The notes: a model not told the origin generated them from the letters alone. 64,000 nucleotides of DNA from Chthoniobacterales bacterium (GCA_051003355.1 JBPCLK010000050.1:2468-66467), one strand, 5' to 3'. Positions 1 to 63,056 are shown, counted from the first letter of the stretch. Made by a program: numbers and translations.

Positions 1-369
1 TTCGCGGCGACCGCGGCGCACCCGGCGGAGCGCATGTCGGTCACGGCCTTTAATCACCTGTCGCAGTTCCGGGAGCGGGCGCGGAAATTGATCGCCACAA
101 ATCGTCGGTTACTCGATGCATTTCTCGATTCGCGCTCCGATCTCGAGTGTTTCCGCCCGCCTGGAGGAACGGTCGTCTTCCCTCGCCTGGCGAAGGGCGA
201 TCCCGCGAAATTTTTTTTGCTGCTGCGCGAAAAATACGAAACCTCCGTGGTGCCGGGCGAGCTTTTCGAGAGACCACGCCATTTTCGTCTCGGTATCGGA
301 GGGCCCACCAAAGAACTGCGAGCCGGCCTTGAGCGATTGAGCGCAGCCCTGGAGGAATTTGCAGCCTAA
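1..369 (+). CDS. PLP-dependent aminotransferase (class I/II-like), C-terminal fragment; 5' end lies outside the window
   Basis: Frame is open from the window edge to TAA 367-369. The tail ...VVPGELFERPRHFRLGIGGPTKELRAGLERLSAALEEF resembles aminotransferase C-termini. Confidence 0.55.
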   Translation, partial: FAATAAHPAERMSVTAFNHLSQFRERARKLIATNRRLLDAFLDSRSDLECFRPPGGTVVFPRLAKGDPAKFFLLLREKYETSVVPGELFERPRHFRLGIGGPTKELRAGLERLSAALEEFAA

Positions 370-441
370 CGACCTCCAAAAACCGCAGCACGAGACGTAG
401 AGCTGCAGTTTGGGTGCGGAGTACAACCGGTCGGGATTTCA

Positions 442-891
442 GTGAGCATCGAGCCTTGCTTTATATCGTATTACGATATATCTCGGGACGTGAAGAAACT
501 GGAATACGAGACGCTGGCGGCCTTTCGCTATGAGATGCGGAAGTTCCTGCGCTTCAGTGAGGACGCTGCGCGGGCGCATGCGCTCACTCCCCAGCAATAC
601 CAAGCCTTGCTCGCGATCGAGGGTTCTCCAGGACGCAACCAACTCAACGTAGGCGAACTGGCGGAGCAACTTCAGGTGACCGCGCATAGTGCGGTCGGTT
701 TGGCGGATCGTTTGGAAAAGGCAAAGCTCATCGAGCGCCATTCTTCGGAGGAGGATCGACGGCAGGTTTTCGTAAAGTTGACCCCTCTAGGACGGAGCCG
801 GCTCGAGCAGGTGGCCGCTCGTCATCGAAAGGAATTGCGGACGGCGGGGCCGCTCCTCGTCGGTCTGCTGGAGAGGGTAAAACGCCTGTAA
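442..891 (+). CDS. MarR-family transcriptional regulator
   Basis: 149 aa. Winged-helix pattern LTPQQYQALLAIEG...LNVGELAEQLQVTAHSAVGLADRLEKAKLIER...DRRQVFVKLTPLG is typical of MarR. Confidence 0.8.
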   Translation: MSIEPCFISYYDISRDVKKLEYETLAAFRYEMRKFLRFSEDAARAHALTPQQYQALLAIEGSPGRNQLNVGELAEQLQVTAHSAVGLADRLEKAKLIERHSSEEDRRQVFVKLTPLGRSRLEQVAARHRKELRTAGPLLVGLLERVKRL

Positions 892-892
892 C

Positions 893-2671
893 ATGTCGCG
901 CCTCACTGATACCCGCCGGCTTGTCTGGCTTTCGTTCCTCGCGCTAGGTCTGGGTGCAGTTATGGCTCCGGTTTCCCAGTTTTTGCTCTGGTTGATTGGA
1001 GTCATTACCTCGGTCGCATTCTTTGGGAAATTCGATCACGCGACGCTCACGCCGATCGGCAATCATCTTGGCCTCGGAGTGATTCTCGTGCCCGTAATCG
1101 GCGGCCTCATCGTCGGTCTGATGGCGCGCTTTGGATCACCTGCGATCCGTGGCCACGGCATCCCCGAGGCGATGGAACAGGTGCTCGAAAATGCGAGCCG
1201 TATTCCAGCGCGGATCACCTGGCTGAAGCCTTTGTCAGCCGCCATTTCCATCGGAACTGGCGGCCCGTTCGGAGCGGAAGGCCCGATCATCGCTACCGGC
1301 GGCGCAGGCGGTTCGCTGGTCGGTCAGGTTCTCCCGACATCGGCGAGCGATAGAAAGACGCTCCTTGCCGCGGGCGCCGCCGCCGGGATGGCAGCGACGT
1401 TCGGCAGCCCTCTTTCGGCTGTTTTGCTTGCGATTGAGTTATTACTTTTCGAGTTCAAAGCGCGGTCCCTGGTTCCCGTAATCCTGGCGGTCACGGTCGC
1501 CACGGCGATTCGTGCCGCCTGGATCGGCAGCAAGCCGGTCTTCGCCATGCCGCAGGTTTTGCACGCGCCGACGGTGCCGGCGTTCTTTGCCCTGCTGGCC
1601 ATCGGAGCAGTGATGGGATTACTCGCCTTCGTCATTAGCAAGGCGGTCTACTTCGTGGAGGAAAACTTCGAGAAACTACCCGTTCACTGGATGTGGTGGC
1701 CGGCGCTGGGCGCCATCGCCGTCGGAATGATCGGCTTTTTCGAGCCGCGAACTCTTGGGGTCGGTTACAGCAACATCACTCTCAACCTGGCCGGCGCTCT
1801 GCCCGCCACCGCTATCCTGGCGTTGTGCTCACTCAAGTTCCTTTCCTGGAGTATCGCACTGGGCAGCGGGACTTCCGGCGGAACCCTCGCGCCCCTCATG
1901 ACCATCGGCAGCGGTCTCGGTCTTGTCGCGGGCGTCGTGGTGCATCCCTTCGTGCCAAGCTTGGACGTGCATCTCGCAGCCCTCGTGGGCATGGCCTGCG
2001 TCTTTGGAGGAGCTTCGCAGGCCATATTGGCCTCGGCCGTTTTTGCCTACGAAACAACCGGGCAAACCCAAGCGATCTTTCCCATCCTGGCTTCCTGCGC
2101 AGTCGCGCTCCTGGTGGTGCGGGCGCTGGGAAAAACTTCGATCATGACGGAGAAAATCGAGCGCCGCGGAGTCAGCGTGCCGGCGGAATTCGGCGCGGAT
2201 GTTTTCGAGCATACCACCGTAGGAAAGGTGATGGAAAAAGAGGTGACGACCATCGCTTCCAATATGCCACTGCTGGAACTGGCCCGGCGCGTTTCTGCCC
2301 ATGACCCGGTTTATTCAAGGAGGCACGCACACCCCGTGGTTGATGACGCTGGCCGTTTGATCGGCATTATCACGCGCGGCGATCTGATGCGCGCTGTGGG
2401 GACCGCGACCGATTCGACGACCGTTCTTGAGGCCGCGTCGCAAAGTCTCGTGGTCACACATCCAGCTGAAACTCTGCACATCGCGATCCACAAACTTCTC
2501 CTGCATGACATCGGCCGGCTGCCCGTGGTAGATCCGCAGGACAGCATGCAGTTGGTGGGATACTTGAGCCGCGCAGCCATCCTCTCCGCGCGCTGGAAAC
2601 AGCTTCACGAAGAAACGTCGACGCATCGCACTTGGGTGCCCTGGAGAAGAGAGAAGATTTCCTCGCGATAG
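893..2671 (+). CDS. ClC-family chloride channel / H+-Cl- antiporter with a C-terminal CBS pair
   Basis: 592 aa and multi-TM. ClC selectivity motifs are present (GSPAIRGHGIPE, GGPFGAEGPII, GTSGGTLAPLM). The C-terminal soluble region has two CBS-like repeats. Confidence 0.9.
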   Translation: MSRLTDTRRLVWLSFLALGLGAVMAPVSQFLLWLIGVITSVAFFGKFDHATLTPIGNHLGLGVILVPVIGGLIVGLMARFGSPAIRGHGIPEAMEQVLENASRIPARITWLKPLSAAISIGTGGPFGAEGPIIATGGAGGSLVGQVLPTSASDRKTLLAAGAAAGMAATFGSPLSAVLLAIELLLFEFKARSLVPVILAVTVATAIRAAWIGSKPVFAMPQVLHAPTVPAFFALLAIGAVMGLLAFVISKAVYFVEENFEKLPVHWMWWPALGAIAVGMIGFFEPRTLGVGYSNITLNLAGALPATAILALCSLKFLSWSIALGSGTSGGTLAPLMTIGSGLGLVAGVVVHPFVPSLDVHLAALVGMACVFGGASQAILASAVFAYETTGQTQAIFPILASCAVALLVVRALGKTSIMTEKIERRGVSVPAEFGADVFEHTTVGKVMEKEVTTIASNMPLLELARRVSAHDPVYSRRHAHPVVDDAGRLIGIITRGDLMRAVGTATDSTTVLEAASQSLVVTHPAETLHIAIHKLLLHDIGRLPVVDPQDSMQLVGYLSRAAILSARWKQLHEETSTHRTWVPWRREKISSR

Positions 2672-4398: not shown

Positions 4399-5022
4399 AT
4401 GAGGCCTTCATCCTTTGCCACCCTGCGCCGATTCGCCGGCGCGCCGTCGACCAAAAGCAACGGAGCCGCTCCGCCGGTGCAACTGGAGCATTGCGAGCTC
4501 TGCAGCGTCCGGCTTGCGCCCACACATCGGCACCTGCTCGAGATGGCCACGCGGCGCATCGTCTGTTCCTGCGATCCGTGCGCGCTGCGCTTCGAGAGCG
4601 TGGTCGGCGGGAAATTCAAACTCATTCCGCGCGACGCGCACCCGCTGCCGGATTTCCAAATGACGGATATGGAATGGGAAGGTCTCTCACTGCCGATCAG
4701 CCTCGCTTTCTTCTTCTACGATACGCCTAACGAAAAAATGGCAGCGTATTATCCGAGCCCGGCCGGCGCGACGGAATCGCTCCTGCCGCTGACCGCCTGG
4801 GAAGCGCTGGTCGAGGCAAATTCAGTCCTGCGCGACATGCAGCCCGATGTGGAGACGCTGCTGGTCAATCGCACGCACGACGCGCGCGAATATTTCATCG
4901 CGCCGATCGATGTTTGTTTCGAGCTCGTCGGCCTGATCCGAGTTCACTGGCGCGGGTTTTCCGGCGGTGAAGAGGTCTGGCGCGAGATCAACGGCTATTT
5001 CGACCGCCTGAAGGAACGCTGA
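4399..5022 (+). CDS. Cys-rich conserved hypothetical protein (recalls the DUF5947 family seen next to group 1h hydrogenases)
   Basis: 207 aa. Cys cluster HCELCSV...IVCSCDPCALRF. The family assignment is from memory and needs an HMM check. Confidence 0.65.
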   Translation: MRPSSFATLRRFAGAPSTKSNGAAPPVQLEHCELCSVRLAPTHRHLLEMATRRIVCSCDPCALRFESVVGGKFKLIPRDAHPLPDFQMTDMEWEGLSLPISLAFFFYDTPNEKMAAYYPSPAGATESLLPLTAWEALVEANSVLRDMQPDVETLLVNRTHDAREYFIAPIDVCFELVGLIRVHWRGFSGGEEVWREINGYFDRLKER

Positions 5023-5657
5023 TGCCCGATCTCGACTTCAAGGTCACTGGTGTTGAGGCGGCCGTTTACGGCATCGCGCCACTCCTTCATTTCAAACTCG
5101 AGGTCACCAACACGCCTGCCGAGGAGATAATCCAGAGCGTGCAATTGCAGGCGCAGATCCAGATTCAATCGACGCAGCGCGCCTATGGGCCGGCGGAGAA
5201 GGAAAAGCTGGGCGAACTCTTCGGCACGCCCGATCGTTGGGGACAGACCTTGCGCGCGCGGCTCTGGACGCACGCCAGTGCCACGGTGCGGCAATTTTCC
5301 GGTGCCACGGAAACGGTTTTGTCGGTTCCGTGCACTTTCGATCTCAACGTCTCGGCCACGAAATATTTCTACGCCCTGGAAGGCGGCGAGGTCCCGCTGC
5401 TTTTCCTTTTTAGCGGGACGATTTTTTATCAAAACGCGAGCGACCAACTGCAGATCCAGCAAGTCTCCTGGAACAAGGAGTGCGCCTACCGAATGCCGAT
5501 CGCGCTCTGGAAGGAAATGATGGATGAGCATTATCCAAACACGGGGTGGCTCTCGCTCGAGCGCGGACTTTTCGAGCGGCTCTATGCTTTTCGCCGGCAG
5601 GAAGGCTTGGCCGATTGGGATAAAACGATCGCCCGCTTGCTAGGACCAGAAGCATGA
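5022..5657 (+). CDS. Conserved hypothetical protein (recalls the DUF6084 family seen next to group 1h hydrogenases)
   Basis: 211 aa. The start overlaps the upstream stop by 1 nt (TGATG). The family assignment is from memory. Confidence 0.65.
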   Translation: MPDLDFKVTGVEAAVYGIAPLLHFKLEVTNTPAEEIIQSVQLQAQIQIQSTQRAYGPAEKEKLGELFGTPDRWGQTLRARLWTHASATVRQFSGATETVLSVPCTFDLNVSATKYFYALEGGEVPLLFLFSGTIFYQNASDQLQIQQVSWNKECAYRMPIALWKEMMDEHYPNTGWLSLERGLFERLYAFRRQEGLADWDKTIARLLGPEA

Positions 5658-5671
5658 GAATGAAATTGTCG

Positions 5672-5799
5672 CGGGTAGGGTGGGCATCCTGCCGCCACAA
5701 ACTTTTCGCTGGCGGCGCGCGAGAACCTTGGAGGCTGATTTTAAAAGTCCAAAAAGGCAGGAGTCCTTTCCCGGCGGCCGGGACGCCCACCCTACCCGG
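5672..5799. repeat. About 128-bp intergenic palindromic element with long terminal inverted repeats
   Basis: CGGGTAGGGTGGGCATCCTGCCGCC (5672-5696) is nearly the reverse complement of GGCGGCCGGGACGCCCACCCTACCCGG (5773-5799). An internal hairpin GCCGCCA/TGGCGGC is also present. Confidence 0.6.
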
Positions 5800-5832
5800 G
5801 CTTATACCGCATCGGCCTGGGAGGACGCTCCT

Positions 5833-7182
5833 ATGAACACCGAACTCGTCGAGAAGGTCGTCAACGCAGTCCTCTACGAGGGCTACATTCTTTATCCCTA
5901 CCGCGCCACCTCGGCGAAGAACCGCGAGCGTTTTACTTTCGGGCGCGTTTATCCCGAGGATTACAGCGTCGCGCAACACGGCGCCGAGCCGTGCTCGATG
6001 CAGACCGAATGCCTGGTGCGCAACGAGTCCAAAGACGCGGTCGTCGCGATCAGTGTCCGGTTTCTGCATCCGATGGCGCGCGAAGTGGGACTGTTGCGCG
6101 AGCCGACTGCAGAAATTTCGCCGGAGCAACCGCCGGCCTTCGACATCGTGCCGGATTTTCGAGTCGGGGAGCAACTCTATCAAACGTGGCAGGAAGTGGT
6201 GGAGCAGAAGGTGGAGGTGCCGTCCTTCCCCCTCCGCGAGGCGTGGCAAACCACGCACGACTTCGCATTCCCTTCATCTCGCTCGGTCGAAGCGATTAGA
6301 GGCGCGGAAGAGATAATCAGCGCGGTCCTGGTGCGGCGACAGGACTCGGTGTGCGGCGCGATCGAGATCGTGGCCGAGCCAATCGACGACACGGTTTTCA
6401 AAATCAGCGTCCGCATTTTCAACCGCACGCCGGTTCCGCCTCACGAGATCGAAAATCAAAGCGCGATCATCATGCGCACCTTCACCTCGACCCACACCAT
6501 CCTGCACACCCAAGGCGGCGAATGGCTCTCCTTAACCGATCCGCCGCCGGCTTATGCGGAGGGCACCAAGGCCTGCAAAAATATCGGCACTTGGCCAGTG
6601 CTCGTCGGCGAAGAAAGCAAGAACGATCGCGATACGATGCTCTCGTCGCCGATCATTCTTTACGATTACCCGCAGATCGCGCCGGAGAGCCCGGGCGATC
6701 TTTTCGACGGGCTCGAGATTGACGAGATCCTCACTCTGCGCGTGATGGCGATGAGTGATGCGGAAAAAGTCGAGATGCGCCAGGTGGACGAGCAGGCGCG
6801 AAAAATTCTGGAACGCACGGAAAACATGTCGAGCGAGAAAATACTCCAGCTGCATGGCGTGATGCGGAGCCTCTCTTCTTCGAATGAAGATTTCTTCAAT
6901 CCATCGACCCAGAAGAAGACAGCGACGGTGGGCGGCGTGGAATTGAAAGCAGGTGACAAGGTGCGCATCCGCCCCAAGAAGCGCGCCGATGTCATGGACA
7001 TCGCGCTCGATGGAAAGATTGCTGTGATCGAGGCGGTGGAACAGGACGTGGAAGGCGGCGTGCAATTCGCGCTCGTGCTCGACGACGACCCCGGCCGCGA
7101 CCTCGGCATGATGCGCCAGCCGGGCCATCGGTTTTTCTATTCCACCGACGAAGTCGAGCCAGTGAAGGAAAGTGACAAGTGA
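5833..7182 (+). CDS. Hypothetical protein, 449 aa, hydrogenase-cluster associated
   Basis: ATG 5833 is preceded by GGGAGGA. The track ORF starts at 5680, but that extension runs through the palindromic element. No recognisable domain. Confidence 0.7.
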   Translation: MNTELVEKVVNAVLYEGYILYPYRATSAKNRERFTFGRVYPEDYSVAQHGAEPCSMQTECLVRNESKDAVVAISVRFLHPMAREVGLLREPTAEISPEQPPAFDIVPDFRVGEQLYQTWQEVVEQKVEVPSFPLREAWQTTHDFAFPSSRSVEAIRGAEEIISAVLVRRQDSVCGAIEIVAEPIDDTVFKISVRIFNRTPVPPHEIENQSAIIMRTFTSTHTILHTQGGEWLSLTDPPPAYAEGTKACKNIGTWPVLVGEESKNDRDTMLSSPIILYDYPQIAPESPGDLFDGLEIDEILTLRVMAMSDAEKVEMRQVDEQARKILERTENMSSEKILQLHGVMRSLSSSNEDFFNPSTQKKTATVGGVELKAGDKVRIRPKKRADVMDIALDGKIAVIEAVEQDVEGGVQFALVLDDDPGRDLGMMRQPGHRFFYSTDEVEPVKESDK

Positions 7183-7185
7183 CCG

Positions 7186-7776
7186 GTGATGAGTAACGAG
7201 ATGAGATCACCGGAGAGCGAATCGCCCGCTCCTTCTCGCTCTGCGCTCGTCGCTCCTGCAAAGCGAATTCTGGTCGCTGGGATTGGAAATATATTTTTTG
7301 GCGACGACGCGTTTGGTTGCGAGGTGGCGCGACAATTGTCCCGCCGCCGGCTGCCCGAAGGCGTGCGCGTAACTGATTTTGGCATTCGCAGTTACGACCT
7401 CGCCTACGCGATCATGGACGACTATGACGCGACGATTTTGGTCGACGCTTCGCCGCAAGGAAACGTTCCCGGGACGGTTTATCTCATCGAGCCGGATTTA
7501 AAAAAGCTGGACGAACTACCCGTGGAGGCCGTAAGTGCTCATAGCATGAATCCGGTTCGCGTTCTGCAACTGGTCCGCTCTCTCGGCGGCACGCCAGGAT
7601 TCTTAAGGGTGGTCGGGTGCGAGCCAGCCATCCTCGAAAATGAGGAAGGCGCGATGGGTTTAAGCGAACACGTTCAAGCCGCTGTTGCCCCGGCGATCGA
7701 AATGATCGAGTCGCTCATCCACGAAGTCCTACAACGTGCTCCGCTCCCCGCCACGGTCACCCAAACACCACATTGA
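7186..7776 (+). CDS. [NiFe]-hydrogenase maturation endopeptidase (HyaD/HupD/HoxM family)
   Basis: ILVAGIGNIFFGDDAFGCEVARQL...ILVDA is typical of the family. The start is GTG 7186 or ATG 7189. Confidence 0.85.
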   Translation: MMSNEMRSPESESPAPSRSALVAPAKRILVAGIGNIFFGDDAFGCEVARQLSRRRLPEGVRVTDFGIRSYDLAYAIMDDYDATILVDASPQGNVPGTVYLIEPDLKKLDELPVEAVSAHSMNPVRVLQLVRSLGGTPGFLRVVGCEPAILENEEGAMGLSEHVQAAVAPAIEMIESLIHEVLQRAPLPATVTQTPH

Positions 7777-7799
7777 ATTCGATGCTTTTGTCTACGCGT

Positions 7800-7937
7800 A
7801 TGAAACAAGAAGAAAATATGAACACAGCGGAACTCTGTTGGTTGGCCTTATTGGGCGGGATCGTCCTCGTGGCGGTCGTTGCCGTTCTTTCCATGATTCC
7901 AGAGATGCGTCGGTATTTGCGTCTCCGGAGCATGTAA
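7800..7937 (+). CDS. Small single-pass membrane protein (45 aa), below the ORF-track cut-off
   Basis: My translation is MKQEENMNTAELCWLALLGGIVLVAVVAVLSMIPEMRRYLRLRSM. It has one hydrophobic helix and a basic tail. Lies directly upstream of hhyS. An alternative start is at 7818. Confidence 0.4.
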   Translation: MKQEENMNTAELCWLALLGGIVLVAVVAVLSMIPEMRRYLRLRSM

Positions 7938-8050
7938 GCGTTTCCCTCTCCCAATTTTTTATATTTATTGAGCGATATGTGAGTTAGCAGATAACGAGAA
8001 GAGGCGTGCGCCTAACGAGACCGGCAACGCCAGACCAGGAGAAAAAAACT

Positions 8051-9115
8051 ATGGTAGCAGCGAACGAGACCTTCAAACATCGGGAGTCGCCCGTAAAAGA
8101 GATCCACGTGATCTGGATGACGACGGGCCTAGGTTGTGACGGAGATTCGGTTTCGATCACCGCGGCGACTCAGCCCAGTATCGAGGACCTGGTCATGGGA
8201 AATATCCCGGGCTTACCCAAAGTGCATGTGCACAACCCGGTCATCGCCTACGAAAACGGCGATGAGTTCATGAAATACTGGTACGACGCGGCCGAAGGCA
8301 AACTCGACCCATTCGTGCTCGTGATGGAAGGCTCCGTTCCGAACGAGAAAATCAAGAAAGAAGGCTACTGGGCCGCCCTCGGAACCGATGCGGTTACAGG
8401 CCAGCCGATCACGACGAACGAGTGGATCGATCGCCTCGCTCCGAAAGCACTCGGCATTGTCGCCTGCGGCACTTGCGCAACCTACGGCGGCATTCACGCC
8501 ATGGAAGGCAATCCGACTGGCGCTATGGGACTGGCGGACTATCTCGGTTGGGACTGGCGGTCCAAGGCCGGTCTGCCGATTGTCAATGTTCCCGGTTGCC
8601 CAGTGCAACCGGATAACATGATGGAGACGCTGCTTTATCTTCTCTACCAGGTCGCTGGCCTCGCACCACTCATCCCGCTCGATGATCAACTCCGTCCCAC
8701 GTGGCTCTTCGGCAAGACGGTCCACGAAGGCTGCGACCGTGCGGGTTACTATGAGCAGGGCGACTTCGCCCACGAGTACGGTTCGCCCAAGTGTCTCGTG
8801 AAGATCGGTTGCTGGGGTCCAGTCGTGAACTGCAACGTGACCAAGCGCGGCTGGATGGCCGGCATCGGCGGTTGCCCTAACGTCGGTGGCATCTGCATCG
8901 GCTGCACCATGCCGGGCTTCCCGGATAAGTTTATGCCCTTCATGGACGCGCCTCCGGGATCGGCTCTCTCCACCAAGGTCGTGGGCGCCTGGGGCGGGAT
9001 CCTGCGCAAGCTGCGTGCGATCACGAATACGACCGTGAACAAGGAACCGAAATGGCGTCATCCGCGCGCGGAACTCACGACGGGTTATGAGCCAAAAAAC
9101 TACGCGCGCAACTAA
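8051..9115 (+). CDS. hhyS: [NiFe]-hydrogenase small subunit, group 1h/5 type, no Tat signal
   Basis: The GLGCDGDS proximal-cluster motif and multiple Fe-S cysteines are present. ATG 8051 is preceded by AGGAG; the track ORF starts at GTG 8006. No RRxFxK twin-arginine motif. Confidence 0.9.
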   Translation: MVAANETFKHRESPVKEIHVIWMTTGLGCDGDSVSITAATQPSIEDLVMGNIPGLPKVHVHNPVIAYENGDEFMKYWYDAAEGKLDPFVLVMEGSVPNEKIKKEGYWAALGTDAVTGQPITTNEWIDRLAPKALGIVACGTCATYGGIHAMEGNPTGAMGLADYLGWDWRSKAGLPIVNVPGCPVQPDNMMETLLYLLYQVAGLAPLIPLDDQLRPTWLFGKTVHEGCDRAGYYEQGDFAHEYGSPKCLVKIGCWGPVVNCNVTKRGWMAGIGGCPNVGGICIGCTMPGFPDKFMPFMDAPPGSALSTKVVGAWGGILRKLRAITNTTVNKEPKWRHPRAELTTGYEPKNYARN

Positions 9116-9143
9116 CTATAGGTAACTCAACCGGAACACTATT

Positions 9144-10949
9144 ATGCCTGACATTTTAACAGCACCAGCCACCAAAACCTCCGCGCCATCCGGTAACATC
9201 GTCGAGATGTCGTGGGACCCGATCACACGCATCGTCGGCAGCCTCGGTATTTACACGAAGATCGATTTCGACTCCAAGAAGGTCATCGAGTGTTACAGCA
9301 CTTCCTCGATCTTCCGCGGTTACAGCATCTTCATGCAGAACAAGGATCCGCGGGATTCGCATTTTATCACCAGCCGCATCTGCGGCATTTGTGGTGATAA
9401 CCACGCCACCTGCTCGGTCTACGCGCAGAACATGGCCTATGGGGTCAAGCCGCCGCCGCTCGCGGAATGGATCGTGAACCTCGGCGAAGCGGCCGAGTAC
9501 ATGTTCGATCACAATATCTTCCAGGACAACCTGGTCGGGGTCGACTTTTGCGAGATGATGGTGAAGGAGACGAACCCAAGCGTTTGGGAAAAAGCGCAAC
9601 GCACGCCGGCGCCGCATTCCGACGATCACGGTTACAAGACGATCGCCGACATCATGACGGCGCTGAACCCATTCACGGGCGAGTTCTACCGCGAGACCCT
9701 GCACGTCAGCCGTTACACGCGAGAGATGTTCTGTTTGATGGAAGGACGCCACGTTCATCCGTCGACCCTGTATCCCGGCGGTGTCGGCACCGTGCCGTCG
9801 ATCCAGATCTTCACCGACTACACCGTGCGCCTCATGCGTTACATCGAGTTCATGAAGAAATGCGTGCCGCTGCACGACGATCTCTTCGACTTCTTCTACG
9901 AGGCGCTGCCGGGTTACGAAGAAGTCGGCCGCCGCCGCATTCTGCTTGCCTGCTGGGGTTCATTTCAGGATCCAGACGTCTGCGACTACGACTACAAGAC
10001 GATGGAGAAATGGGGCAACGCCATGTTCGTTACGCCTGGCATCGTAATCGATGGCGAGCTGGTCACGACCAACCTCGTCGATATCAACCTCGGCATCCGT
10101 ATCCTGCTCGGCTCGTCCTACTACGACGATTGGGATAACTCCGAGACCTTCGTCAAGAACGATCCGTTAGGCAATCCGGTCGACAAGAAGCATCCGTGGA
10201 ACCAGACCACCATACCGAAGCCGCAAAAGCGCGACTTCGGCGGCAACTACACCTGGGTGATGTCGCCCCGCTGGCTCGATAAGCGGACCGGCGATCATCT
10301 CGCGATGGACACCGGCGGTGGACCGATTGCCCGCCTCTGGGCCACCTCGCTCGCGAAATTGGTTAACATTGGTTACGTCGAATCGACCGGCCAGAGCGTC
10401 AAGATTCGCCTGCCGAAAACTGCGCTCAAAGGCGAGGTCGAGTTCGAGTGGAAAATTCCGAAATGGAGCAACGCGATCGAACGCGATCGGGCTCGCACCT
10501 ACTTCCAGGCTTATGCGGCCGCTTGCGCGCTGCATTTCCTGGAGAAGGCGATGAAAGAAGTGCATGCCGGACGGACCGCGACTTTCACTCCTTTCAAGGT
10601 GCCGGACGAAGCGATCGGCTGCGGATTCCACGAAGCCGTCCGTGGCGTTCTCTCGCACCACCTGGTCATTCGCAAGGGCAAGATCGCGAACTACCATCCC
10701 TATCCGCCGACGCCGTGGAACGCGAACCCGCGTGACATTTACGGCACGCCCGGGCCATACGAAGATGCCGTGCAGAACACGCCGATTTTCGAGGAGAACG
10801 GCCCGGATAAATTCAAGGGCATCGATATTATGCGCGCGGTGCGCAGCTTCGATCCTTGTCTCCCCTGCGGAGTGCACATGTATCTCGGTGGCGGCAAGGT
10901 GCTGAAACAGATGCACACTCCAACGGCCCTCGCGGGATTAGCCAAGTAG
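9144..10949 (+). CDS. hhyL: [NiFe]-hydrogenase large subunit, group 1h/5 (high-affinity type)
   Basis: L1 motif HFITSRICGICGDNHATC and L2 motif SFDPCLPCGVH match the group 5/1h signatures as I recall them. A C-terminal extension follows the L2 His and would be the protease substrate. Confidence 0.95.
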   Translation: MPDILTAPATKTSAPSGNIVEMSWDPITRIVGSLGIYTKIDFDSKKVIECYSTSSIFRGYSIFMQNKDPRDSHFITSRICGICGDNHATCSVYAQNMAYGVKPPPLAEWIVNLGEAAEYMFDHNIFQDNLVGVDFCEMMVKETNPSVWEKAQRTPAPHSDDHGYKTIADIMTALNPFTGEFYRETLHVSRYTREMFCLMEGRHVHPSTLYPGGVGTVPSIQIFTDYTVRLMRYIEFMKKCVPLHDDLFDFFYEALPGYEEVGRRRILLACWGSFQDPDVCDYDYKTMEKWGNAMFVTPGIVIDGELVTTNLVDINLGIRILLGSSYYDDWDNSETFVKNDPLGNPVDKKHPWNQTTIPKPQKRDFGGNYTWVMSPRWLDKRTGDHLAMDTGGGPIARLWATSLAKLVNIGYVESTGQSVKIRLPKTALKGEVEFEWKIPKWSNAIERDRARTYFQAYAAACALHFLEKAMKEVHAGRTATFTPFKVPDEAIGCGFHEAVRGVLSHHLVIRKGKIANYHPYPPTPWNANPRDIYGTPGPYEDAVQNTPIFEENGPDKFKGIDIMRAVRSFDPCLPCGVHMYLGGGKVLKQMHTPTALAGLAK

Positions 10950-10950
10950 C

Positions 10951-11643
10951 ATGGCCGATCAAGTTGCGGAGCAGGTGATGCTCGAGGCATCACCAGATGA
11001 GATCTACGACATCGAACTGGAGCACAGCCTGCTCGAGGCGAACGCCAAGCTGGCCGTGGAAAATCGCGCGGTACTCGATAAAAACGGCATCACTGCGATC
11101 GATTTCATGGGTGCGATCGGGTCCGGGAAAACGACGTTGATCACGAAGCTCGTCGGGATGTTAAAAGACAAGTTCGGGGTGGCCGTTTTCAATGGCGACG
11201 CCACGACGAGTAACGACGCCGACGGCATTTCGAGTCAGAACGTGCCCGTGGTGCAGATCGCGACGATCAACGGCTGTCACCTCGACGCCAACCTGGTCGG
11301 CAAAGGCCTGAAGAAGATTGATCTCGAAAATCTCAAGATGATCTTCATCGAGAACATCGGGAACCTGATTTGCCCGGCGGAATTTCCGCTGGGCTCGAAG
11401 GCCCGCGTCGTGGTTGTGAGCGTGACCGAGGGCCCGTGGATGGTGCGGAAACATCCTCACATGTTCCTCGGCTCGCAGGTCGTCGTGATCAACAAGATCG
11501 ATCTCGCCGAAGCGATGGAGGTGAGCGTCGATCAACTGATCGCCGACGTCCACGCGCTCAAGCCCGACATCAAGGTCATCCCGACGAGCTGCAAAAAAGG
11601 CACCGGTCTCGACGAAGTCGCCGCCACCCTGCTCGCGATTTAG
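10951..11643 (+). CDS. hypB: Hydrogenase nickel-incorporation GTPase HypB
   Basis: P-loop GAIGSGKTT, ENIGNLICPAEF and NKIDL motifs are present. Confidence 0.9.
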   Translation: MADQVAEQVMLEASPDEIYDIELEHSLLEANAKLAVENRAVLDKNGITAIDFMGAIGSGKTTLITKLVGMLKDKFGVAVFNGDATTSNDADGISSQNVPVVQIATINGCHLDANLVGKGLKKIDLENLKMIFIENIGNLICPAEFPLGSKARVVVVSVTEGPWMVRKHPHMFLGSQVVVINKIDLAEAMEVSVDQLIADVHALKPDIKVIPTSCKKGTGLDEVAATLLAI

Positions 11644-11654
11644 GCAGCGCGCTC

Positions 11655-12050
11655 ATGCACGAGTTTTCGATCGCGTCCGGGCTGGTCGAAAAGCTCCTCG
11701 ATTTCGCGGAAAAGAATCCCGACAAGAAACTCGTCGAAGTGCGAGTGGCGATTGGCGAGTTCACCCAGATCGAGGAGGAGCAGCTTCGCTTTTGCTATGA
11801 ATCAATCATCACCGAGATGCCGATCGCGGGTTCCAGCCTGAGGATCGAGTCGGTTCTCGGCAAGGTCGCCTGCTCTCATTGCGGCTACAGCGGCCCGCCG
11901 AAATATTGGGACGGAGCGTTGCACGGAACGCCCGTCGCGACGTTGGAATGTCCTCAATGCGCCCAGACCGCCTCCATCATCGAGGGCGAGGAATGCGCGA
12001 TTCGTTCAATCCGTTACCAGCCTAACGAAGTTGCCGGCATTATGGCATGA
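11655..12050 (+). CDS. hypA: Hydrogenase nickel-insertion protein HypA
   Basis: N-terminal MHEFSIA plus two CxxC pairs (CSHC...CPQC). The spacer between the pairs is longer than usual. Confidence 0.85.
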   Translation: MHEFSIASGLVEKLLDFAEKNPDKKLVEVRVAIGEFTQIEEEQLRFCYESIITEMPIAGSSLRIESVLGKVACSHCGYSGPPKYWDGALHGTPVATLECPQCAQTASIIEGEECAIRSIRYQPNEVAGIMA

Positions 12051-12823
12051 CCACGCTTTTTCCCATTCTGCTCTTCGGCTTCTTCCTCGGGATGCGACAC
12101 GCGACGGATTCGGATCACGTCGTCGCCGTGACGACGATCGTGAGCCGACAGCGCAGCATCGGAGGCGCGGCCTGGACCGGAATCTTTTGGGGCATCGGCC
12201 ATAGCATCACGCTCCTGGCGATCGGCGGAGCAATCATCCTCTTTGGCATCGTCGTCCCGGAACGTCTCGGGATGAGCCTGGAGTTCGGTGTCGCGCTCAT
12301 GCTGATCCTGCTCGGCGCGCTCAATCTGCGCGCGACTTTTCGCGCGGTTGAGCAAGTGACGGCTGACAGCAAACACGACTCGCATCATCAGCACACCCAT
12401 CGGCATGGGGACTACATCCACGACCATCCTCACGGCCATGAGCGCACCACCCACGGCCACGCCGAAGAAGCGGTCCCGCCCGCCAAACTGGATCGCTGGT
12501 TGGGCAGCTCGCGCTTTTTTCGGGCGCTGCGGCCGATCGCGATTGGCACCGTCCACGGGTTAGCCGGCTCCGCGGCGGTGGCGTTATTGGTCCTGCCCAT
12601 TATTCACGATCCGCTCTGGGCAATGGCATATCTCCTCATCTTCGGCATCGGCACCATCGCCGGCATGATGCTGATCACGGCGGCCATCGCGGTTCCGGTT
12701 TCCTACTCAACGCGGTTCCAATTCCTGCACCGGCACCTTGGCACCGCGTCCGGCGTGCTCAGCCTCGGCTTCGGCCTGTTCCTCGTTTACCAGATCGGTT
12801 ACGTCCAAGGGCTTTTCCGTTAG
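12047..12823 (+). CDS. Nickel/cobalt transporter, NiCoT/UreH-like, 6-TM type with a His-rich loop
   Basis: NiCoT-like signature GMRHATDSDH in TM1. The central loop is DSKHDSHHQHTHRHGDYIHDHPHGHERTTHGH. ATGA overlap with hypA. Confidence 0.7.
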   Translation: MTTLFPILLFGFFLGMRHATDSDHVVAVTTIVSRQRSIGGAAWTGIFWGIGHSITLLAIGGAIILFGIVVPERLGMSLEFGVALMLILLGALNLRATFRAVEQVTADSKHDSHHQHTHRHGDYIHDHPHGHERTTHGHAEEAVPPAKLDRWLGSSRFFRALRPIAIGTVHGLAGSAAVALLVLPIIHDPLWAMAYLLIFGIGTIAGMMLITAAIAVPVSYSTRFQFLHRHLGTASGVLSLGFGLFLVYQIGYVQGLFR

Positions 12824-12848
12824 GCAGAGTCGGATTAATCCAAGCAGA

Positions 12849-13967
12849 GTGAGCAACCGCCACGTCTATACCCTCGGGATCGAGGAAGAATTTCAGATCA
12901 TCGATCCCACCACGCGTGAACTGCGTTCGCGGAGCAAAGAGATCATTCGAGACGGCGAAGATACCTTGTGCGACCAAATCATCTCCGAGCTCCATCAATC
13001 GATGATCGAGTTGGGAACAAAAATCTGCCCCGACATCCGTTCGGCGCGACGGCAGCTGGTCGCATTACGGTCAGAACTGGCCCGGCTGGCGGCGGGCGAG
13101 GGGTTGAAGATCGCCTCCGCGGGGACGCATCCTTTTTCCAAATGGGAAGATCAGCCGATCACCGACAAGAAACGTTACCGGACGATTCTGCGGGACATGC
13201 AGCAAATCGCGCGGAGCAACATTATCTTTGGTCTGCACGTGCATGTCGGCATTCCGGACCGCGCGACCGGCCTGGAAATCATGAACGAGGCGCGTTCTTT
13301 TCTGCCGCACCTTTTCGCGCTCTCCTCGAACTCGCCTTTCTGGGAAGGCGAAGACACCGGCCTAAAGACTTATCGGCAGGTTATCTTCGAACGCTTCCCG
13401 CACACGGGTCTGCCGGAAGCTTTCGCCAGCCTCGCGGAATACGACAATTACATTGATCTTCTCGTTCGCACCGACTCCATCGAGGATGCAACCAAACTTT
13501 GGTGGGACATTCGGCTGCATCCGAAGTTCAACACGATCGAATTCCGAATCTGTGATGCGCAATCGCGCGTTGACGACACGATCGCGCTGGCGGCCCTGAT
13601 GCAGGCAATCATAGCGCGCCTGCAGCATCTGCGCGCCGAAGGAAAATCCTTTCCGATTTACGCGCGCCGTTTACTACAGGAAAACCGGTGGCGCGCCGCG
13701 CGTTTCGGCCTGGATGGGAAACTCATTGATTTCGAAAAGCGAGCGGCGCGGCCGGAACGAGAACTGATTCGCGAGCTGCTCGATTTCGTCGCGCCGGCCG
13801 CGGACGAGCTCGGATCCTCGGCTGAGCTAAAGCACGTTGAACAAATCTTGCGCGAGGGAACGGGCGCGGATCGGCAGTTGGCAGTCTGGAAAAAATCACA
13901 GGACCTGAAGGTGGTCGTCGATCATCTCATTGCAGAAACGAACGAGGGATTGAAGGCTGCCGAATAG
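12849..13967 (+). CDS. Carboxylate-amine ligase, YbdK / GCS2 (glutamate-cysteine ligase family 2) type
   Basis: N-terminus HVYTLGIEEEFQIIDP and the overall layout are typical of YbdK. I chose GTG 12849 as the start because track ORF start 12738 overlaps the transporter. Confidence 0.8.
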   Translation: MSNRHVYTLGIEEEFQIIDPTTRELRSRSKEIIRDGEDTLCDQIISELHQSMIELGTKICPDIRSARRQLVALRSELARLAAGEGLKIASAGTHPFSKWEDQPITDKKRYRTILRDMQQIARSNIIFGLHVHVGIPDRATGLEIMNEARSFLPHLFALSSNSPFWEGEDTGLKTYRQVIFERFPHTGLPEAFASLAEYDNYIDLLVRTDSIEDATKLWWDIRLHPKFNTIEFRICDAQSRVDDTIALAALMQAIIARLQHLRAEGKSFPIYARRLLQENRWRAARFGLDGKLIDFEKRAARPERELIRELLDFVAPAADELGSSAELKHVEQILREGTGADRQLAVWKKSQDLKVVVDHLIAETNEGLKAAE

Positions 13968-14007
13968 TCGCGTTTCGCAGGCGAACGGCGAAATTTAGAG
14001 CCTCCCG

Positions 14008-16472: not shown

Positions 16473-16473
16473 A

Positions 16474-17945: not shown

Positions 17946-17947
17946 CC

Positions 17948-37516: not shown

Positions 37517-37519
37517 CGA

Positions 37520-46794: not shown

Positions 46795-46812
46795 TCGGAA
46801 GGCTGCCAATCC

Positions 46813-46850: not shown

Positions 46851-47036
46851 TTGGCGTTTCGGCGTTCTACGGAGCGGCCTATTTGCCGGGACGGGCGACG
46901 CGCCCGAATTCTAGAGGTTCGCTGAACCGGTCAGCGCTCAAGGCTCGCGACTCGGAGATTGCGGGAAGCAGTGGGCGCGATAGACTGCGCCCGTAACCGG
47001 AAAGCGGCGCCGCCGCGCTCTCCGGAACGCGCACCT

Positions 47037-47118
47037 GCCAGGGTGGCGAAATTGGCAGACGCGCCAGACTTAGGATCTGGTGGAGCAATCCGTAGGGGTT
47101 CAAGTCCCCTCCCTGGTA
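47037..47118 (+). tRNA. tRNA-Leu (anticodon TAG), long variable arm
   Basis: Acceptor GCCAGGG/CCCTGGT (G1-U72), anticodon stem-loop CCAGA-CTTAGGA-TCTGG, variable arm, T arm GGGGTTCAAGTCCCC. Folded by eye. Confidence 0.8.
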
Positions 47119-47127
47119 CCTCGTTTC

Positions 47128-47592
47128 ATGAAAAAAGAGCACCTCGAGATCGAGCGGAAATTTCTGATCGAGAAATTGCCTCGGACCCTCGAGCGTTATC
47201 CGCACAAGAAAATCGCGCAAGGTTACCTGGTGGTCGAGCGCGAAAAGGGTCACGTGCGACTGCGCCGGGCGGGTCGCACCTGTACGCTCACCTTCAAAAG
47301 GGGCCCCGCGAGCGCGCGGGAAGAACGCGAAATCCGTCTCACGGCGGCGCAATTTGCCGTGCTCTGGCCCGCCACGGCCGGCTCTCGCCTAACGAAAACT
47401 CGCTACTACGTTCCGTGGAAGAAACTCACCGTCGAGATCGACATCTACAGCGGTTCCAATGACGGCCTGATTGTGGCGGAAGTGGAGTTTCCCGACGTCG
47501 AGACCTGCCATTCATTTCGACCGCCAGACTGGCTGGGCGACGAAGTAACCGGGGCCAATCGTTACAGCAATGTAAAATTAGCGTGCGATTAG
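47128..47592 (+). CDS. CYTH-domain protein (triphosphate tunnel metalloenzyme)
   Basis: The N-terminal EIERKFL signature is present. Start chosen at ATG 47128, because track ORF start 47080 overlaps the tRNA. Confidence 0.8.
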   Translation: MKKEHLEIERKFLIEKLPRTLERYPHKKIAQGYLVVEREKGHVRLRRAGRTCTLTFKRGPASAREEREIRLTAAQFAVLWPATAGSRLTKTRYYVPWKKLTVEIDIYSGSNDGLIVAEVEFPDVETCHSFRPPDWLGDEVTGANRYSNVKLACD

Positions 47593-53213: not shown

Positions 53214-53225
53214 GAATGATTAATA

Positions 53226-54660: not shown

Positions 54661-55695
54661 ATGATTCTGTTTATCCTCGTCGTCATCGCGGCGATCGCCT
54701 TTGAGTACATCAACGGTTTTCACGACGCGGCCAACGCTATCGCCACCGTTGTCTCAACCAAGGTGATGACGCCGCGCCAAGCGATCGCGATGGCCGCTTT
54801 CTTTAACCTCACTGGCGCTCTCACCGGCACGGCGGTCGCTTCCACGATCGGGAAAGGGATCGTCGATCTCCATGTCGTCACCATGCCTACGATCCTGTGC
54901 GCATTGATCGGCGCGATCGTCTGGAACCTGATTACCTGGATGCTCGGCCTGCCTTCAAGCTCGAGTCACGCCTTGATTGGCGGCCTCTGTGGTGCGGCCA
55001 TCGCCTCGGCCAAGGGAGATTGGTCCGTTCTGAAATGGCAGACCGGCCTCATGCCAAAAGTCGTCGTGCCGATGCTCACTTCGCCCGTGATCGGCTTCCT
55101 GCTCGGCGGCCTGCTCATGGTCCTCCTGCTCATCACCCTGCGCTCCTACACGCCACATCTGGTTCAATCCATCTTTGGCAAATTGCAGCTCGGGAGCGCC
55201 GCGTGGATGGCCCACAGCCATGGCACGAACGACGCCCAGAAGACCATGGGCATCATCGCGCTGGCACTCTACACCGGCACGACCAACGGCAAATTCGCGA
55301 ATCTGCCACCCTTCCTGAGTTTCCTTCATACCCCGGAATTCAAAGTCAGCACCTGGGTGGTCGTCCTCTGCGCGACCACCATGGCGGCCGGGACCGCTGC
55401 CGGGGGCTGGCGCATTATTCGCACGTTAGGCCACAAGATGGTGAAACTTCAGCCGGTCCACGGTTTTGCGGCCGAGACCAGCGCCGCCATTATCATCCAG
55501 GTCGCCAGCTCCTGGGGCATTCCGCTTTCCACCACCCACGTCATCTCCACCTCGATCATGGGCGTGGGCGCGGTCAAACGCTTCAGCGGCGTCAAGTGGA
55601 CCGTTGTGAAGCGGATCGTCTGGGCGTGGGTCTTCACCCTGCCCGCGACCGGTCTCATCGGCTACATCCTGGCTCGCGCCGCGCTCGCCTTTTAA
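54661..55695 (+). CDS. PiT-family inorganic phosphate transporter
   Basis: Contains YINGFHDAANAIATVV and GTNDAQKTMGII signature repeats. Confidence 0.9.
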   Translation: MILFILVVIAAIAFEYINGFHDAANAIATVVSTKVMTPRQAIAMAAFFNLTGALTGTAVASTIGKGIVDLHVVTMPTILCALIGAIVWNLITWMLGLPSSSSHALIGGLCGAAIASAKGDWSVLKWQTGLMPKVVVPMLTSPVIGFLLGGLLMVLLLITLRSYTPHLVQSIFGKLQLGSAAWMAHSHGTNDAQKTMGIIALALYTGTTNGKFANLPPFLSFLHTPEFKVSTWVVVLCATTMAAGTAAGGWRIIRTLGHKMVKLQPVHGFAAETSAAIIIQVASSWGIPLSTTHVISTSIMGVGAVKRFSGVKWTVVKRIVWAWVFTLPATGLIGYILARAALAF

Positions 55696-55718
55696 GCACA
55701 GAGCGCCGATCGTGGCGC

Positions 55719-56174
55719 ATGCGCCTTTATTTCTTGCGACATGGTGAGGCCGATTGGCCGGAATGGGAGGGTGACGACGACGATCGTCCTCTCACGAAGT
55801 CCGGTCGCAAAGAGATGCGCCAAGTGGGCGAATTACTCGCCCGACTCAAAACCAAAATCGATGTCGTCCTGACCAGCCCGCTCCCGCGCGCCTGCCAGAC
55901 CGCCGACATCGCAGCCGAGCATCTTAAGGTGCGAGTGCACGAGGAAAGCTTGCTTGCGCCCGGCTTCAGCTTCGCGAATTTGGCCACCATCCGGCGCAAA
56001 TATCCTCAGCAAGTCCTTATGCTAGTAGGCCATGAGCCTGATTTCTCGGCGGTGGCCGCGGCCCTCACGGGTGGCGAGCTGAAGTTTGCCAAGGCTGGCG
56101 TCGCCCTATTCGAACTGGCCGGCCGCAAGGGAAAACTGCTCTGGCTTTTCCCGCCGAAAATAGTGAAAAATTAG
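55719..56174 (+). CDS. sixA: Phosphohistidine phosphatase SixA
   Basis: The RHG motif (MRLYFLRHGEA) and 151-aa size fit the SixA branch of the histidine phosphatase superfamily. Confidence 0.75.
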   Translation: MRLYFLRHGEADWPEWEGDDDDRPLTKSGRKEMRQVGELLARLKTKIDVVLTSPLPRACQTADIAAEHLKVRVHEESLLAPGFSFANLATIRRKYPQQVLMLVGHEPDFSAVAAALTGGELKFAKAGVALFELAGRKGKLLWLFPPKIVKN

Positions 56175-62078: not shown

Positions 62079-62195
62079 GAATTGTCTCTCCGTTTTTTTG
62101 CGGCCAAAGCCGCGGGTGGTTGGTTTAGGCGCAGACGATTTCTCACCGTCTGCGGTCCGGATTTCTCCGGATGCGGGCAAGGCTAGAGAGCAATT

Positions 62196-62235
62196 GTTAC
62201 AAACGTATGACGGTAAAGTAACAGTTGCGTGAAAT
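62196..62235 (-). promoter_or_regulatory. Tandem Pho boxes: four heptamers phased at 11 bp
   Basis: The minus-strand reading is ATTTCAC-GCAA-CTGTTAC-TTTA-CCGTCAT-ACGT-TTGTAAC. The array lies 118-157 bp upstream of the porin-pstS start. Confidence 0.55.
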
Positions 62236-62243
62236 TGGACGCC

Positions 62244-63056
62244 CTACGCAACCGCACTTCGATATCCCTGGGGATCGATGAATACCTCATCGTAGCCGAC
62301 TCCCCGCAGAGCCTCCTGCAGCGCGTGCACACGCAGCGGGGCGACTGGCATTTCGTTAGGCGCAATCTCGACCCGTGCCCGCGTCCGAATTCCCTCTGCC
62401 ACGTGCCGCACACGAAAGACGCGGAAGCCCAACTGCCGCACCGCTGCTTCTGCGCGCTCGATCATGTTCAGAACCGCCGCCGTCACCGGAGTGCCGTGCG
62501 GAATACGCGAACTCAGACATGGCTGAGCGGGAGCATCTGCCGTGGGCAACCGCATGGCGCGGGAAAGAGAGCGAATCTCGCTTTTCGTTAGGCCGACTTC
62601 TTTCAAAGGGGCGAGCACCGCGAACTCCACGGCCGCTTGCCGGCCGGGCCGAACCTGGAGCGCGTCGTCGGCGTTCTCCCCATAGGCGATGGCGCGATAC
62701 CCGCGCTCCCGCGCGAGTGTCTCGAGCTTGGTAAAAAGCTCGGCCTTGCAATAATAGCAGCGGTTTACCGGATTACTGGTGTAGTGCGGATCCTGCATTT
62801 CGGTCGTCTCGACAATCTCGATCTGGGCGCCCAGCTCTTCGGCCAGCCCCGAGGCATCGGCCAGAGCCTGTCGCGGCAAACTCGGGCTGTCCGCGATGAC
62901 CCCTAGGCAATTCCGGCCAAGTGTCTCGACCGCCACAGCCAGCAGGAAAGCGCTGTCTACTCCTCCGGAATAAGCGATGACCAGCGGCGCGCTTTTCCGC
63001 AGAAGCTCACGCAAGGCATCGCGTTTCATTCCTGCCGCGACGAGCTGTTCGGTCAT
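62244..63056 (-). CDS. larE: PP-loop ATP-dependent sulfur transferase, LarE-like
   Basis: PP-loop VIAYSGGVDSAFL and the QPCLSSRIP motif containing the LarE-type Cys. Start chosen at MTEQL. Confidence 0.7.
   Translation of the reverse strand: MTEQLVAAGMKRDALRELLRKSAPLVIAYSGGVDSAFLLAVAVETLGRNCLGVIADSPSLPRQALADASGLAEELGAQIEIVETTEMQDPHYTSNPVNRCYYCKAELFTKLETLARERGYRAIAYGENADDALQVRPGRQAAVEFAVLAPLKEVGLTKSEIRSLSRAMRLPTADAPAQPCLSSRIPHGTPVTAAVLNMIERAEAAVRQLGFRVFRVRHVAEGIRTRARVEIAPNEMPVAPLRVHALQEALRGVGYDEVFIDPQGYRSAVA

Follow-up and report, generated by a model that had tools for sequence, protein, structure and literature searches.

Why should one short, non-palindromic word be written into gene after gene of a bacterial genome, on both strands and in any reading frame? 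This question is raised by a stretch of 64,000 nucleotides from a Chthoniobacterales bacterium (GCA_051003355.1, JBPCLK010000050.1:2468-66467; hereafter the window), in which the octamer CGTTAGGC occurs 36 times. Based on its placement, its turnover among relatives and its occurrence in a second phylum, we tentatively read CGTTAGGC as a genome-wide 'self' word of the DNA-uptake-sequence type, that may have been built up by molecular drive and whose specificity factor may have moved between phyla, a reading that in our judgement falls just short of being probable.

Abundance and placement of the octamer in the window

A preliminary description of the window had listed 36 exact copies of CGTTAGGC, 23 on the plus strand and 13 as the reverse complement GCCTAACG, and all of them were found where it had placed them, as were six additional sites matching only the heptamer core CGTTAGG (8876, 16213, 18549, 20147, 38970 and 53907). 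The resulting density is 5.6 copies per 10 kb, at a measured G+C content of 58.2 % instead of the roughly 60 % assumed before. The proposed excess holds against composition-based as well as codon-aware null models. Markov models of orders 1–3 predict 1.3–1.7 copies, dinucleotide-preserving shuffles of the window gave 1.56 ± 1.20 copies with a maximum of 5, and a synonymous-codon shuffle, that preserves all protein sequences and the codon usage of each gene, gave 4.67 ± 1.42 copies with a maximum of 10. Part of the latter mean arises because intergenic and stop-codon copies were left unshuffled. Markov models of orders 5–6 are uninformative as a null, since nearly all CGTTAG in the window sits within CGTTAGGC.

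The octamer ranks first among the 8-mers of the window, with GC-rich words such as CGATCGCG behind it, and each of the octamer's 24 one-mismatch variants occurs 0–5 times, which equals background; the excess therefore belongs to the whole word and not to a part of it. As had been described, the preceding base is mostly T (27 of 36 copies) and the following base mostly a purine (G in 18 and A in 11, together 29 of 36), and the flanking columns further out are flat. Within the window the density is uneven, with about one copy per kb at 8–38 kb and just five copies at 38–64 kb.

Each orientation of CGTTAGGC contains a stop codon in one frame (CGT-TAG-GC and GCC-TAA-CG), which leaves just four frames that can be read through. 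Each of these occurs in the window, namely Pro-Asn in 10–11 copies, Leu(TTA)-Gly in 8, Leu(CTA)-Thr in 5–6 and Val-Arg(AGG) in 4–5. The word furthermore gives the stop codon to six genes (copies 364, 12818, 21804, 28474, 35896 and 37511), and a single copy, at 46819, is purely intergenic. The four readings and the six stop codons had been recognized before, while the counts per frame differ by one or two from those first given because gene starts were called differently. The predominant Leu-Gly and Pro-Asn frames and the overlapped stop codons are low-cost positions. No sense-strand preference was seen, with 13 copies in the orientation of their gene and 16 opposite to it. The constraint thus acts at the DNA level and not on a peptide or repeat family, as had been suggested, and it overrides codon preference.

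Retention, dialects and the same word in a second phylum

Twenty-five loci (L001–L023, L025 and L080) are syntenic with window 8–31 kb at about 76 % nucleotide identity. They hold 4–13 copies of CGTTAGGC per 10 kb, and the octamer is usually their most enriched 8-mer. At orthologous positions the exact word is retained in 173 of 335 cases (52 %), compared to 14 % for other 8-mers of the window in the same alignments. The sites at 18784 (23/23) and 19531 (20/23) are universal, those at 14195 (1/17) and 30035 (1/12) unique to the window. In relatives without the word, its place is mostly taken by a form one base away (for example CGTCAGGC or CGTTGGGC) or by a synonymous one (for example CGCTGGGC at 17830), so that gains and losses of copies go back to point substitution in resident genes and not to insertion. 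All copies are given below, where 'exact in x/y' counts the exact word at the orthologous position among the aligned syntenic relatives.

364–371, minus: GCC-TAA-CG on the plus strand gives the TAA stop of an aminotransferase-like open reading frame (ORF), 1–369
4725–4732, minus: within the DUF5947 gene (4399–5022, plus), Thr-Pro-Asn-Glu
8010–8017, minus: codons 2–4 of the NiFe hydrogenase small-subunit ORF 8006–9115 (Arg-Leu-Thr-Arg), or just upstream of the true start
10165–10172, plus: NiFe large-subunit gene, Pro-Leu(TTA)-Gly-Asn; exact in 4/11
12020–12027, minus: Pro-Asn in ORF 11370–12050, or TAA stop of the small ORF 11879–12025; exact in 9/13
12818–12825, plus: CGT-TAG is the stop of the NicO-like gene 12047–12823
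14195–14202, minus: hypF, Arg-Leu-Thr-Asn; exact in 1/17, hence a lineage-specific gain
14594–14601, plus: hypF, Ser-Leu(TTA)-Gly-Ser; exact in 7/18, one-mismatch form in 8
15105–15112, plus: hypF, Ile-Val-Arg(AGG)-His; exact in 9/18
16961–16968, minus: hypD, Leu-Pro-Asn-Asp; exact in 6/21
17830–17837, plus: hypD, Pro-Leu(TTA)-Gly-Ala; exact in 15/23, CGCTGGGC in 5 (CTG Leu codon, peptide unchanged)
18316–18323, minus: SIS-domain gene 17948–18574, Thr-Pro-Asn-Asp; exact in 7/21
18784–18791, plus: hypE, Ser-Leu(TTA)-Gly-Asp; exact in 23/23
19531–19538, plus: hypE, Ser-Leu(TTA)-Gly-Lys; exact in 20/23
21804–21811, plus: complement GCC-TAA is the stop of the glucan phosphorylase gene 21806–24361 (minus); exact in 2/24
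22534–22541, plus: phosphorylase gene (minus), Pro-Pro-Asn-Gly; exact in 6/24, one-mismatch form in 14
25407–25414, plus: rhomboid gene 24450–26030 (minus), Arg-Leu-Thr-Ser; exact in 4/9
25739–25746, minus: rhomboid gene 24450–26030 (minus), Val-Val-Arg-Arg; exact in 8/14
27748–27755, minus: ECF sigma factor gene 27673–28347 (minus), Pro-Leu(TTA)-Gly-Thr; exact in 9/15
28474–28481, minus: CGT-TAG is the stop of the BNR/sortilin-like gene 28476–31316 (minus); exact in 9/11
29000–29007, plus: BNR gene (minus), Leu-Pro-Asn-Val; exact in 12/13
29126–29133, plus: BNR gene (minus), Pro-Pro-Asn-Asp; exact in 11/13
30035–30042, plus: BNR gene (minus), Ala-Pro-Asn-Gly; exact in 1/12, CGTTCGGC in most
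30596–30603, plus: BNR gene (minus), Ala-Pro-Asn-Asp; exact in 9/11
32204–32211, plus: short-chain dehydrogenase gene 31867–32574, Ser-Leu(TTA)-Gly-Gly
33433–33440, plus: histidine kinase gene 33311–34717, Val-Val-Arg-His
35896–35903, plus: CGT-TAG is the stop of ORF 34810–35901
36811–36818, minus: metallo-beta-lactamase-fold gene 36674–37516, Thr-Pro-Asn-Glu
36945–36952, plus: metallo-beta-lactamase-fold gene 36674–37516, Ser-Leu(TTA)-Gly-Glu
37511–37518, minus: GCC-TAA is the stop of the metallo-beta-lactamase-fold gene 36674–37516
37928–37935, plus: ORF 37520–38206 (minus), Leu-Thr frame; a short way past the stop codon of fumarase
46819–46826, plus: intergenic; 5′ arm of a terminator-like hairpin after the NMT1-like gene 45676–46794
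46837–46844, minus: one-mismatch copy, GCTTAACG as read on the plus strand; 3′ arm of the hairpin 46813–46850
46813–46850, plus: hairpin GGGCTCGTTAGGC...GCTTAACGAGCCC, core stem within a fold computed on 46805–46870
47387–47394, minus: ORF 47080–47592 (plus), Arg-Leu-Thr-Lys
55424–55431, plus: histidine-phosphatase gene 54897–56174, His-Val-Arg-Pro
62354–62361, plus: ORF 62244–63089 (minus), Ala-Pro-Asn-Glu
62586–62593, plus: ORF 62244–63089 (minus), Gly-Leu-Thr-Lys

The hairpin, in which the exact copy at 46819 faces the one-mismatch copy, lies 20 nt past a stop codon, after the NMT1-like gene, and folds with −35.8 kcal/mol (z = −6). At its position the relatives L255 and L256 retain an exact inverted pair of CGTTAGGC, and their spacers are unrelated. 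A terminator-type inverted pair is thus preserved in three genomes despite differing spacers.

While close relatives are enriched for the word, as had been predicted for a genuine signal, farther lineages carry another word or none. The form found in the lineage of the window is T-CGTTAGGC-R. More distant Chthoniobacterales loci (L029, L030 and L071) have the variant CT-CGTTAGG, and others are free of the word, with zero copies in the syntenic 21 kb of, for example, L024, which belongs to a 4.18-Mb chromosome-level metagenome-assembled genome (MAG). Udaeobacter-like Chthoniobacterales are rich in another word, AAGATCGACA(W), likewise hyperabundant, which reaches 33 copies per 21 kb. Over 14 loci (L034, L038, L040, L041, L043, L048, L050, L054, L056, L059, L060, L068, L069 and L077) its GATCGAC core occurs 287 times, with strands at 151:136. 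The order thus shows lineage-specific dialects, T-CGTTAGGC-R, CT-CGTTAGG, AAGATCGACA or none. One of these loci, L069 (JAJPGZ010000003.1), carries both words, with 33 copies of AGATCGAC and 13 of TCGTTAGG, and may represent a lineage that is switching dialect or one with two systems. In another Verrucomicrobiota lineage, L055 (JBEEHV010000014.1) has a repeated GGTCAGACCGGGCC-like word in both orientations, that may be a REP-like element.

The same octamer was also found outside of the Verrucomicrobiota. A scan of metagenome contigs for pairs of 9-mers 4–34 nt apart gave at least 120 loci, and about 39 of those listed bear further dispersed copies. Many of these have 67–75 % G+C and carry the word in both orientations about once per kb, with a weaker T at −1; two of the high-G+C loci are Gemmatimonadaceae by protein matches. 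Tandem arrays with a unit containing CGTTAGGC were also met in three unrelated metagenome contigs (L117 5857–5949, L228 621–880 and L144 1865–1908; periods 7, 12 and 14); these are minisatellites and not the dispersed word.

Within the Gemmatimonadaceae the distribution is patchy. L235 encodes an FtsK 92 % identical to the one of L179 and holds 18 copies within 22 kb; zero copies were found in three syntenic loci (FtsK 67–72 % identical), nor does the syntenic locus of Roseisolibacter agri hold any. A PilT-family ATPase is encoded in the word-bearing L179 and L235 as well as in the word-lacking L237–L239 and is uninformative either way.

The word is present in a cultured type strain with a complete genome of 73 % G+C, Gemmatirosa kalamazoonensis KBS708 (ATCC BAA-2150). 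A 22-kb stretch of its chromosome (CP007128) has 17 copies of CGTTAGGC against 0.8 expected, and both megaplasmids have 4–7.6 copies per 10 kb. In total we counted 407 copies in 622 kb (L240, L242–L251, L253 and L254), or about 6.5 per 10 kb, with CGTTAGGC as the most enriched 8-mer and CGTTAGGC-R as its consensus. As in the window, all four stop-free frames and both orientations are used. The word contains 174 of the 231 TTA codons (75 %) and 34 of the 139 TAG/TAA stops (24 %) in this set, and 6.9 % of genes end in it. Copies are uniformly placed within genes, which rules out a positional bias of this kind, and counts per gene are Poisson-like. One further segment, L252 (plasmid NZ_CP007129, 800001–850000), was excluded from these statistics; it has 65 copies in 50 kb, a lower G+C content (0.70) and few high-GC3 ORFs, and may be the 53-kb tandem-repeat region named in the KBS708 genome paper.

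Shared DNA does not account for the word in the two phyla, since segments common to both reach no more than about 76 % identity across ≤250 bp. Word density and local G+C are positively correlated in KBS708 (rho = 0.40, p = 5e-6, Spearman), even though CGTTAGGC has a higher AT content than the genome. On the 1.1-Mb megaplasmid the longest gap without the word spans 10.9 kb (L254 21207–32069, NZ_CP007129 ~1,021,207–1,032,069); its position agrees with the GC-skew switch, and it encodes ParB and a weak RPA-like replication-initiator gene. Other long word-free stretches hold two SusC/SusD pairs, and a low-GC one has two scanned ORFs with no Pfam family. Atypical DNA, such as low-GC bins, the rep/par module and low-GC orphan ORFs, is poor in the word.

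Uptake, binding or modification as possible sources of the word

A 20-fold excess of the whole word needs a process that sees the complete word, so that a one-base bias is insufficient. Of such processes just one is established, namely the molecular drive that sequence-biased DNA uptake and recombination exert, exemplified by the DNA uptake sequences (DUS) of Neisseriaceae and the uptake signal sequences (USS) of Pasteurellaceae. DUS and USS occur at a density of about one per kb. The preliminary description had already named DNA uptake sequences as the closest likeness, and in density, use of both strands, location in genes, dialects and lack of polarity they still are, which makes them our working model and not a demonstrated membership.

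Like the DUS (GCCGTCTGAA, ComP receptor), CGTTAGGC is an exact short asymmetric word that occurs about once per kb on both strands, in genes and at gene ends, with lineage dialects and occasional inverted-pair terminator hairpins; its copies are created by point mutation, and it may be scarce in foreign DNA. It differs from DUS in its unrelated sequence, its rare terminator pairs, the lack of a clear intergenic enrichment and the use of one word in two phyla. Moreover, the DUS receptor is known, whereas a receptor for CGTTAGGC and a biased uptake are hypothetical. With the USS (AAGTGCGGT/ACAAGCGGT) the word shares a 9-base core with weaker flank preferences, a mostly genic location at low protein cost, two types in different subclades and an accumulation that molecular drive can explain. 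USS are spaced more evenly than random and have AT-rich flanking segments; the present word is Poisson-like and lacks such flanks. The cyanobacterial HIP1 (GCGATCGC) is likewise a hyperabundant octamer, kept at orthologous sites and varying by lineage. HIP1 is however palindromic, methylated by DmtA and DmtC, quasi-periodic and phylum-wide, whereas CGTTAGGC is asymmetric (reverse complement GCCTAACG), randomly spaced, patchy within families and not among the N6-methyladenine (m6A) motifs of KBS708. Unexplained for decades, HIP1 is now reported to enhance transformation, and it is now proposed to work by sequence-biased uptake drive too (10.64898/2026.06.24.733823).

In the uptake scenario, a DNA-binding component of a DNA-import or recombination route would prefer word-bearing fragments, whereby alleles in which a point mutation creates the word would be imported and recombined into the population more often. 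Through this molecular drive the word would accumulate in the native genome until an equilibrium of about one copy per 1–2 kb is reached. Copies would settle where the protein cost is least, at synonymous positions of common dipeptides and at stop codons, and a benefit of each site to the cell would be unnecessary. The specificity factor would probably have been transferred horizontally, given that subclades of two unrelated phyla have one and the same 8-mer and their sister lineages do not. A more specific version, that a transferable DNA-recognition module such as a minor pilin or DNA receptor moved between Chthoniobacterales and Gemmatirosa-like Gemmatimonadaceae and rewrote thousands of positions into one 'password', is conceivable from the comparative data but rather doubtful.

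Several results weigh against an uptake sequence. To our knowledge, there is no report of natural transformation in Chthoniobacterales or Gemmatimonadaceae. That two phyla have one and the same 8-mer is without precedent among uptake sequences and needs the extra assumption of receptor transfer. The inverted pair in a terminator that had been pointed out before does exist, with one exact and one one-mismatch arm, but such pairs are rare, with a single locus in the window, two or three of hairpin-like form across the 513 kb from relatives and essentially none in KBS708. In the latter strain 13.5 % of the copies lie in the 10.7 % of sequence that is non-coding, which is no clear intergenic enrichment, and the megaplasmids are as word-rich as the sole 22-kb chromosomal stretch sampled. 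Spacing is random and not even, with a coefficient of variation of the normalized gaps of 1.02 versus 0.93 ± 0.04 for random placement and, for KBS708, a variance of counts per 5-kb bin close to the mean; regular spacing of the word is thereby ruled out. Pointing the other way, though weakly, 2.9 million viral contigs scanned for the paired word yielded 34 hits, which is chance level, and in all of them the copies were confined to the seeding pair or to a short tandem array; this negative is weak since no phage could be assigned to these hosts.

If the uptake reading is true, uptake sequences would for the first time be known from outside Proteobacteria (and possibly Cyanobacteria), and a single uptake word would for the first time be common to two phyla. 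Self-preferring, sequence-selective natural transformation would be active in two abundant, barely cultivated soil phyla, and uptake specificity itself would be horizontally transferable, which bears on whether drive or benefit explains why uptake sequences exist. Its presence in a cultured strain with a complete genome, KBS708, makes the uptake hypothesis directly testable. Independently of how it arose, the word marks genomes strongly and can be used as a barcode of lineage, both in binning MAGs and in recognizing foreign DNA within them.

We found no description of this word, nor of an uptake-like sequence in either phylum: a literature search for the 8-mer gave just primers and nematode telomere (TTAGGC) papers, and nothing relevant came up on uptake sequences when Verrucomicrobia, Chthoniobacter, Udaeobacter and Gemmatimonadetes were searched for.

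Among the alternatives, the word might be the site of an abundant non-polar chromosomal protein, either nucleoid-structuring or a nuclease/defence 'self-mark', with directly selected copies and a gene acquired horizontally in both phyla, which we consider unlikely. Retention of the exact word at orthologous sites 3.7 times better than that of other 8-mers fits direct selection, the patchy occurrence of an identical word in two phyla is as expected of a transferable protein, and the equal density on the KBS708 megaplasmids and the sampled chromosome stretch, together with absence from the rep/par module, points the same way. The Poisson-like placement with gaps of 6–11 kb and uniform positions within genes is however unlike a spacing-dependent structural or protective system, and the word is not associated with promoters or gene starts. 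Thousands of sites of tiny effect are hard to maintain by selection alone, and we know of no nucleoid or defence protein with sites this dense.

A target of a modification enzyme coupled to repair or conversion, in the manner of HIP1 and its methylases or of very-short-patch repair, had been offered as another alternative and is now disfavoured; we regard it as improbable. Mobile modification genes would explain the patchy distribution across two phyla, and the second word AAGATCGACA contains GATC. A one-position repair bias would however convert one class of neighbours, for a roughly two-fold gain, and cannot yield the 20-fold excess. In KBS708 the C-to-T neighbour TGTTAGGC is moreover raised and not depleted (49 versus 7.5 expected). 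Sites of 5-methylcytosine (m5C) that are asymmetric and 8 bp long are not known to us. HIP1 is recognized by two methylases (10.64898/2026.06.24.733823). The single-molecule real-time (SMRT) methylome of KBS708 lists m6A at RGATCY, ATGCAC and CCAGN7TCA only, each more than 99 % modified, and CGTTAGGC is absent from this published motif list, which as a 2014 analysis of m6A did not cover m5C, so that an m5C mark would escape it (PMC3974934).

A polar signal, either Chi (RecBCD/AddAB) or KOPS/SRS (FtsK), would also be a short, asymmetric, lineage-specific and over-represented word, and the strand ratios of 23:13 in the window and 13:5 in one Gemmatimonadaceae locus might suggest one. In the co-directional gene block at window 1–21 kb the strands are however at 7:7, each locus of the relatives is near balance (178:142 or 56:44 summed over L001–L023), and the 1.1-Mb megaplasmid of KBS708 has 215:189 over eleven 50-kb segments (550 kb). 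With the origin of this megaplasmid located by GC skew and a ParB/RPA-like module near 1.025 Mb, about 52 % of the copies fall on the leading strand in a tally from counts and GC skew, and there is no switch at the origin. Chi is co-oriented with replication at about 75 % and KOPS at more than 85 %, and both Chi and KOPS/SRS are less dense than the present word. Since the word is without replication polarity, as the preliminary description had argued, signals of this type are excluded and the explanation is essentially refuted.

That the copies are a dispersed repeat or mobile element, a recurrent peptide motif or a compositional artefact has raw abundance alone in its favour and can be dismissed, as the flanks are flat beyond −1/+1, four frames, stop codons and intergenic sites are used, the codon null reaches just 4.7 copies, orthologous positions differ by substitution (one-base variants in relatives) and not by insertion, and DNA common to the two phyla does not go beyond the ≤250 bp noted above. 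REP/BIME, MITEs and NTS/dRS3 likewise reach hundreds to thousands of copies per genome, yet they are structured, 20–40 bp or more, mostly intergenic and have conserved flanks or palindromes, unlike a bare genic 8–9-mer. A link to Ssn/NTS was rejected as well, Ssn sites being palindromic repeats of about 30 bp.

Genomic context of the window

The window encodes, among others, a CLC channel, a glucan phosphorylase, a rhomboid protease, an ECF sigma factor, a fumarase and two-component systems. A NiFe hydrogenase cluster of the high-affinity type occupies 4399–19664 (DUF5947, DUF6084, HycI, small and large subunits, hypB, hypF, hypC, hypD and hypE) and adjoins the Pup ligase gene pafA (19718–21247), an arrangement kept in about 25 Chthoniobacterales MAGs. 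Relatives of PafA in the genome collection are all from soil Verrucomicrobiota of the order Chthoniobacterales, at 74–87 % amino-acid identity.

A pst/pho region at 38000–64000 encodes PstC, PstA, PhoU, a PhoX-like protein and phosphate porins. This part of the window is native, because its PstC has Chthoniobacterales relatives at 80–89 % identity. It is several-fold poorer in the word than the hydrogenase/PafA region, in the window as well as in relatives (L255, L256 and L257: 3.2–5.1 copies per 10 kb). Within a single genome, the PafA region (L080) reaches 8.8 copies per 10 kb compared to 3.2 for the pst region (L255).

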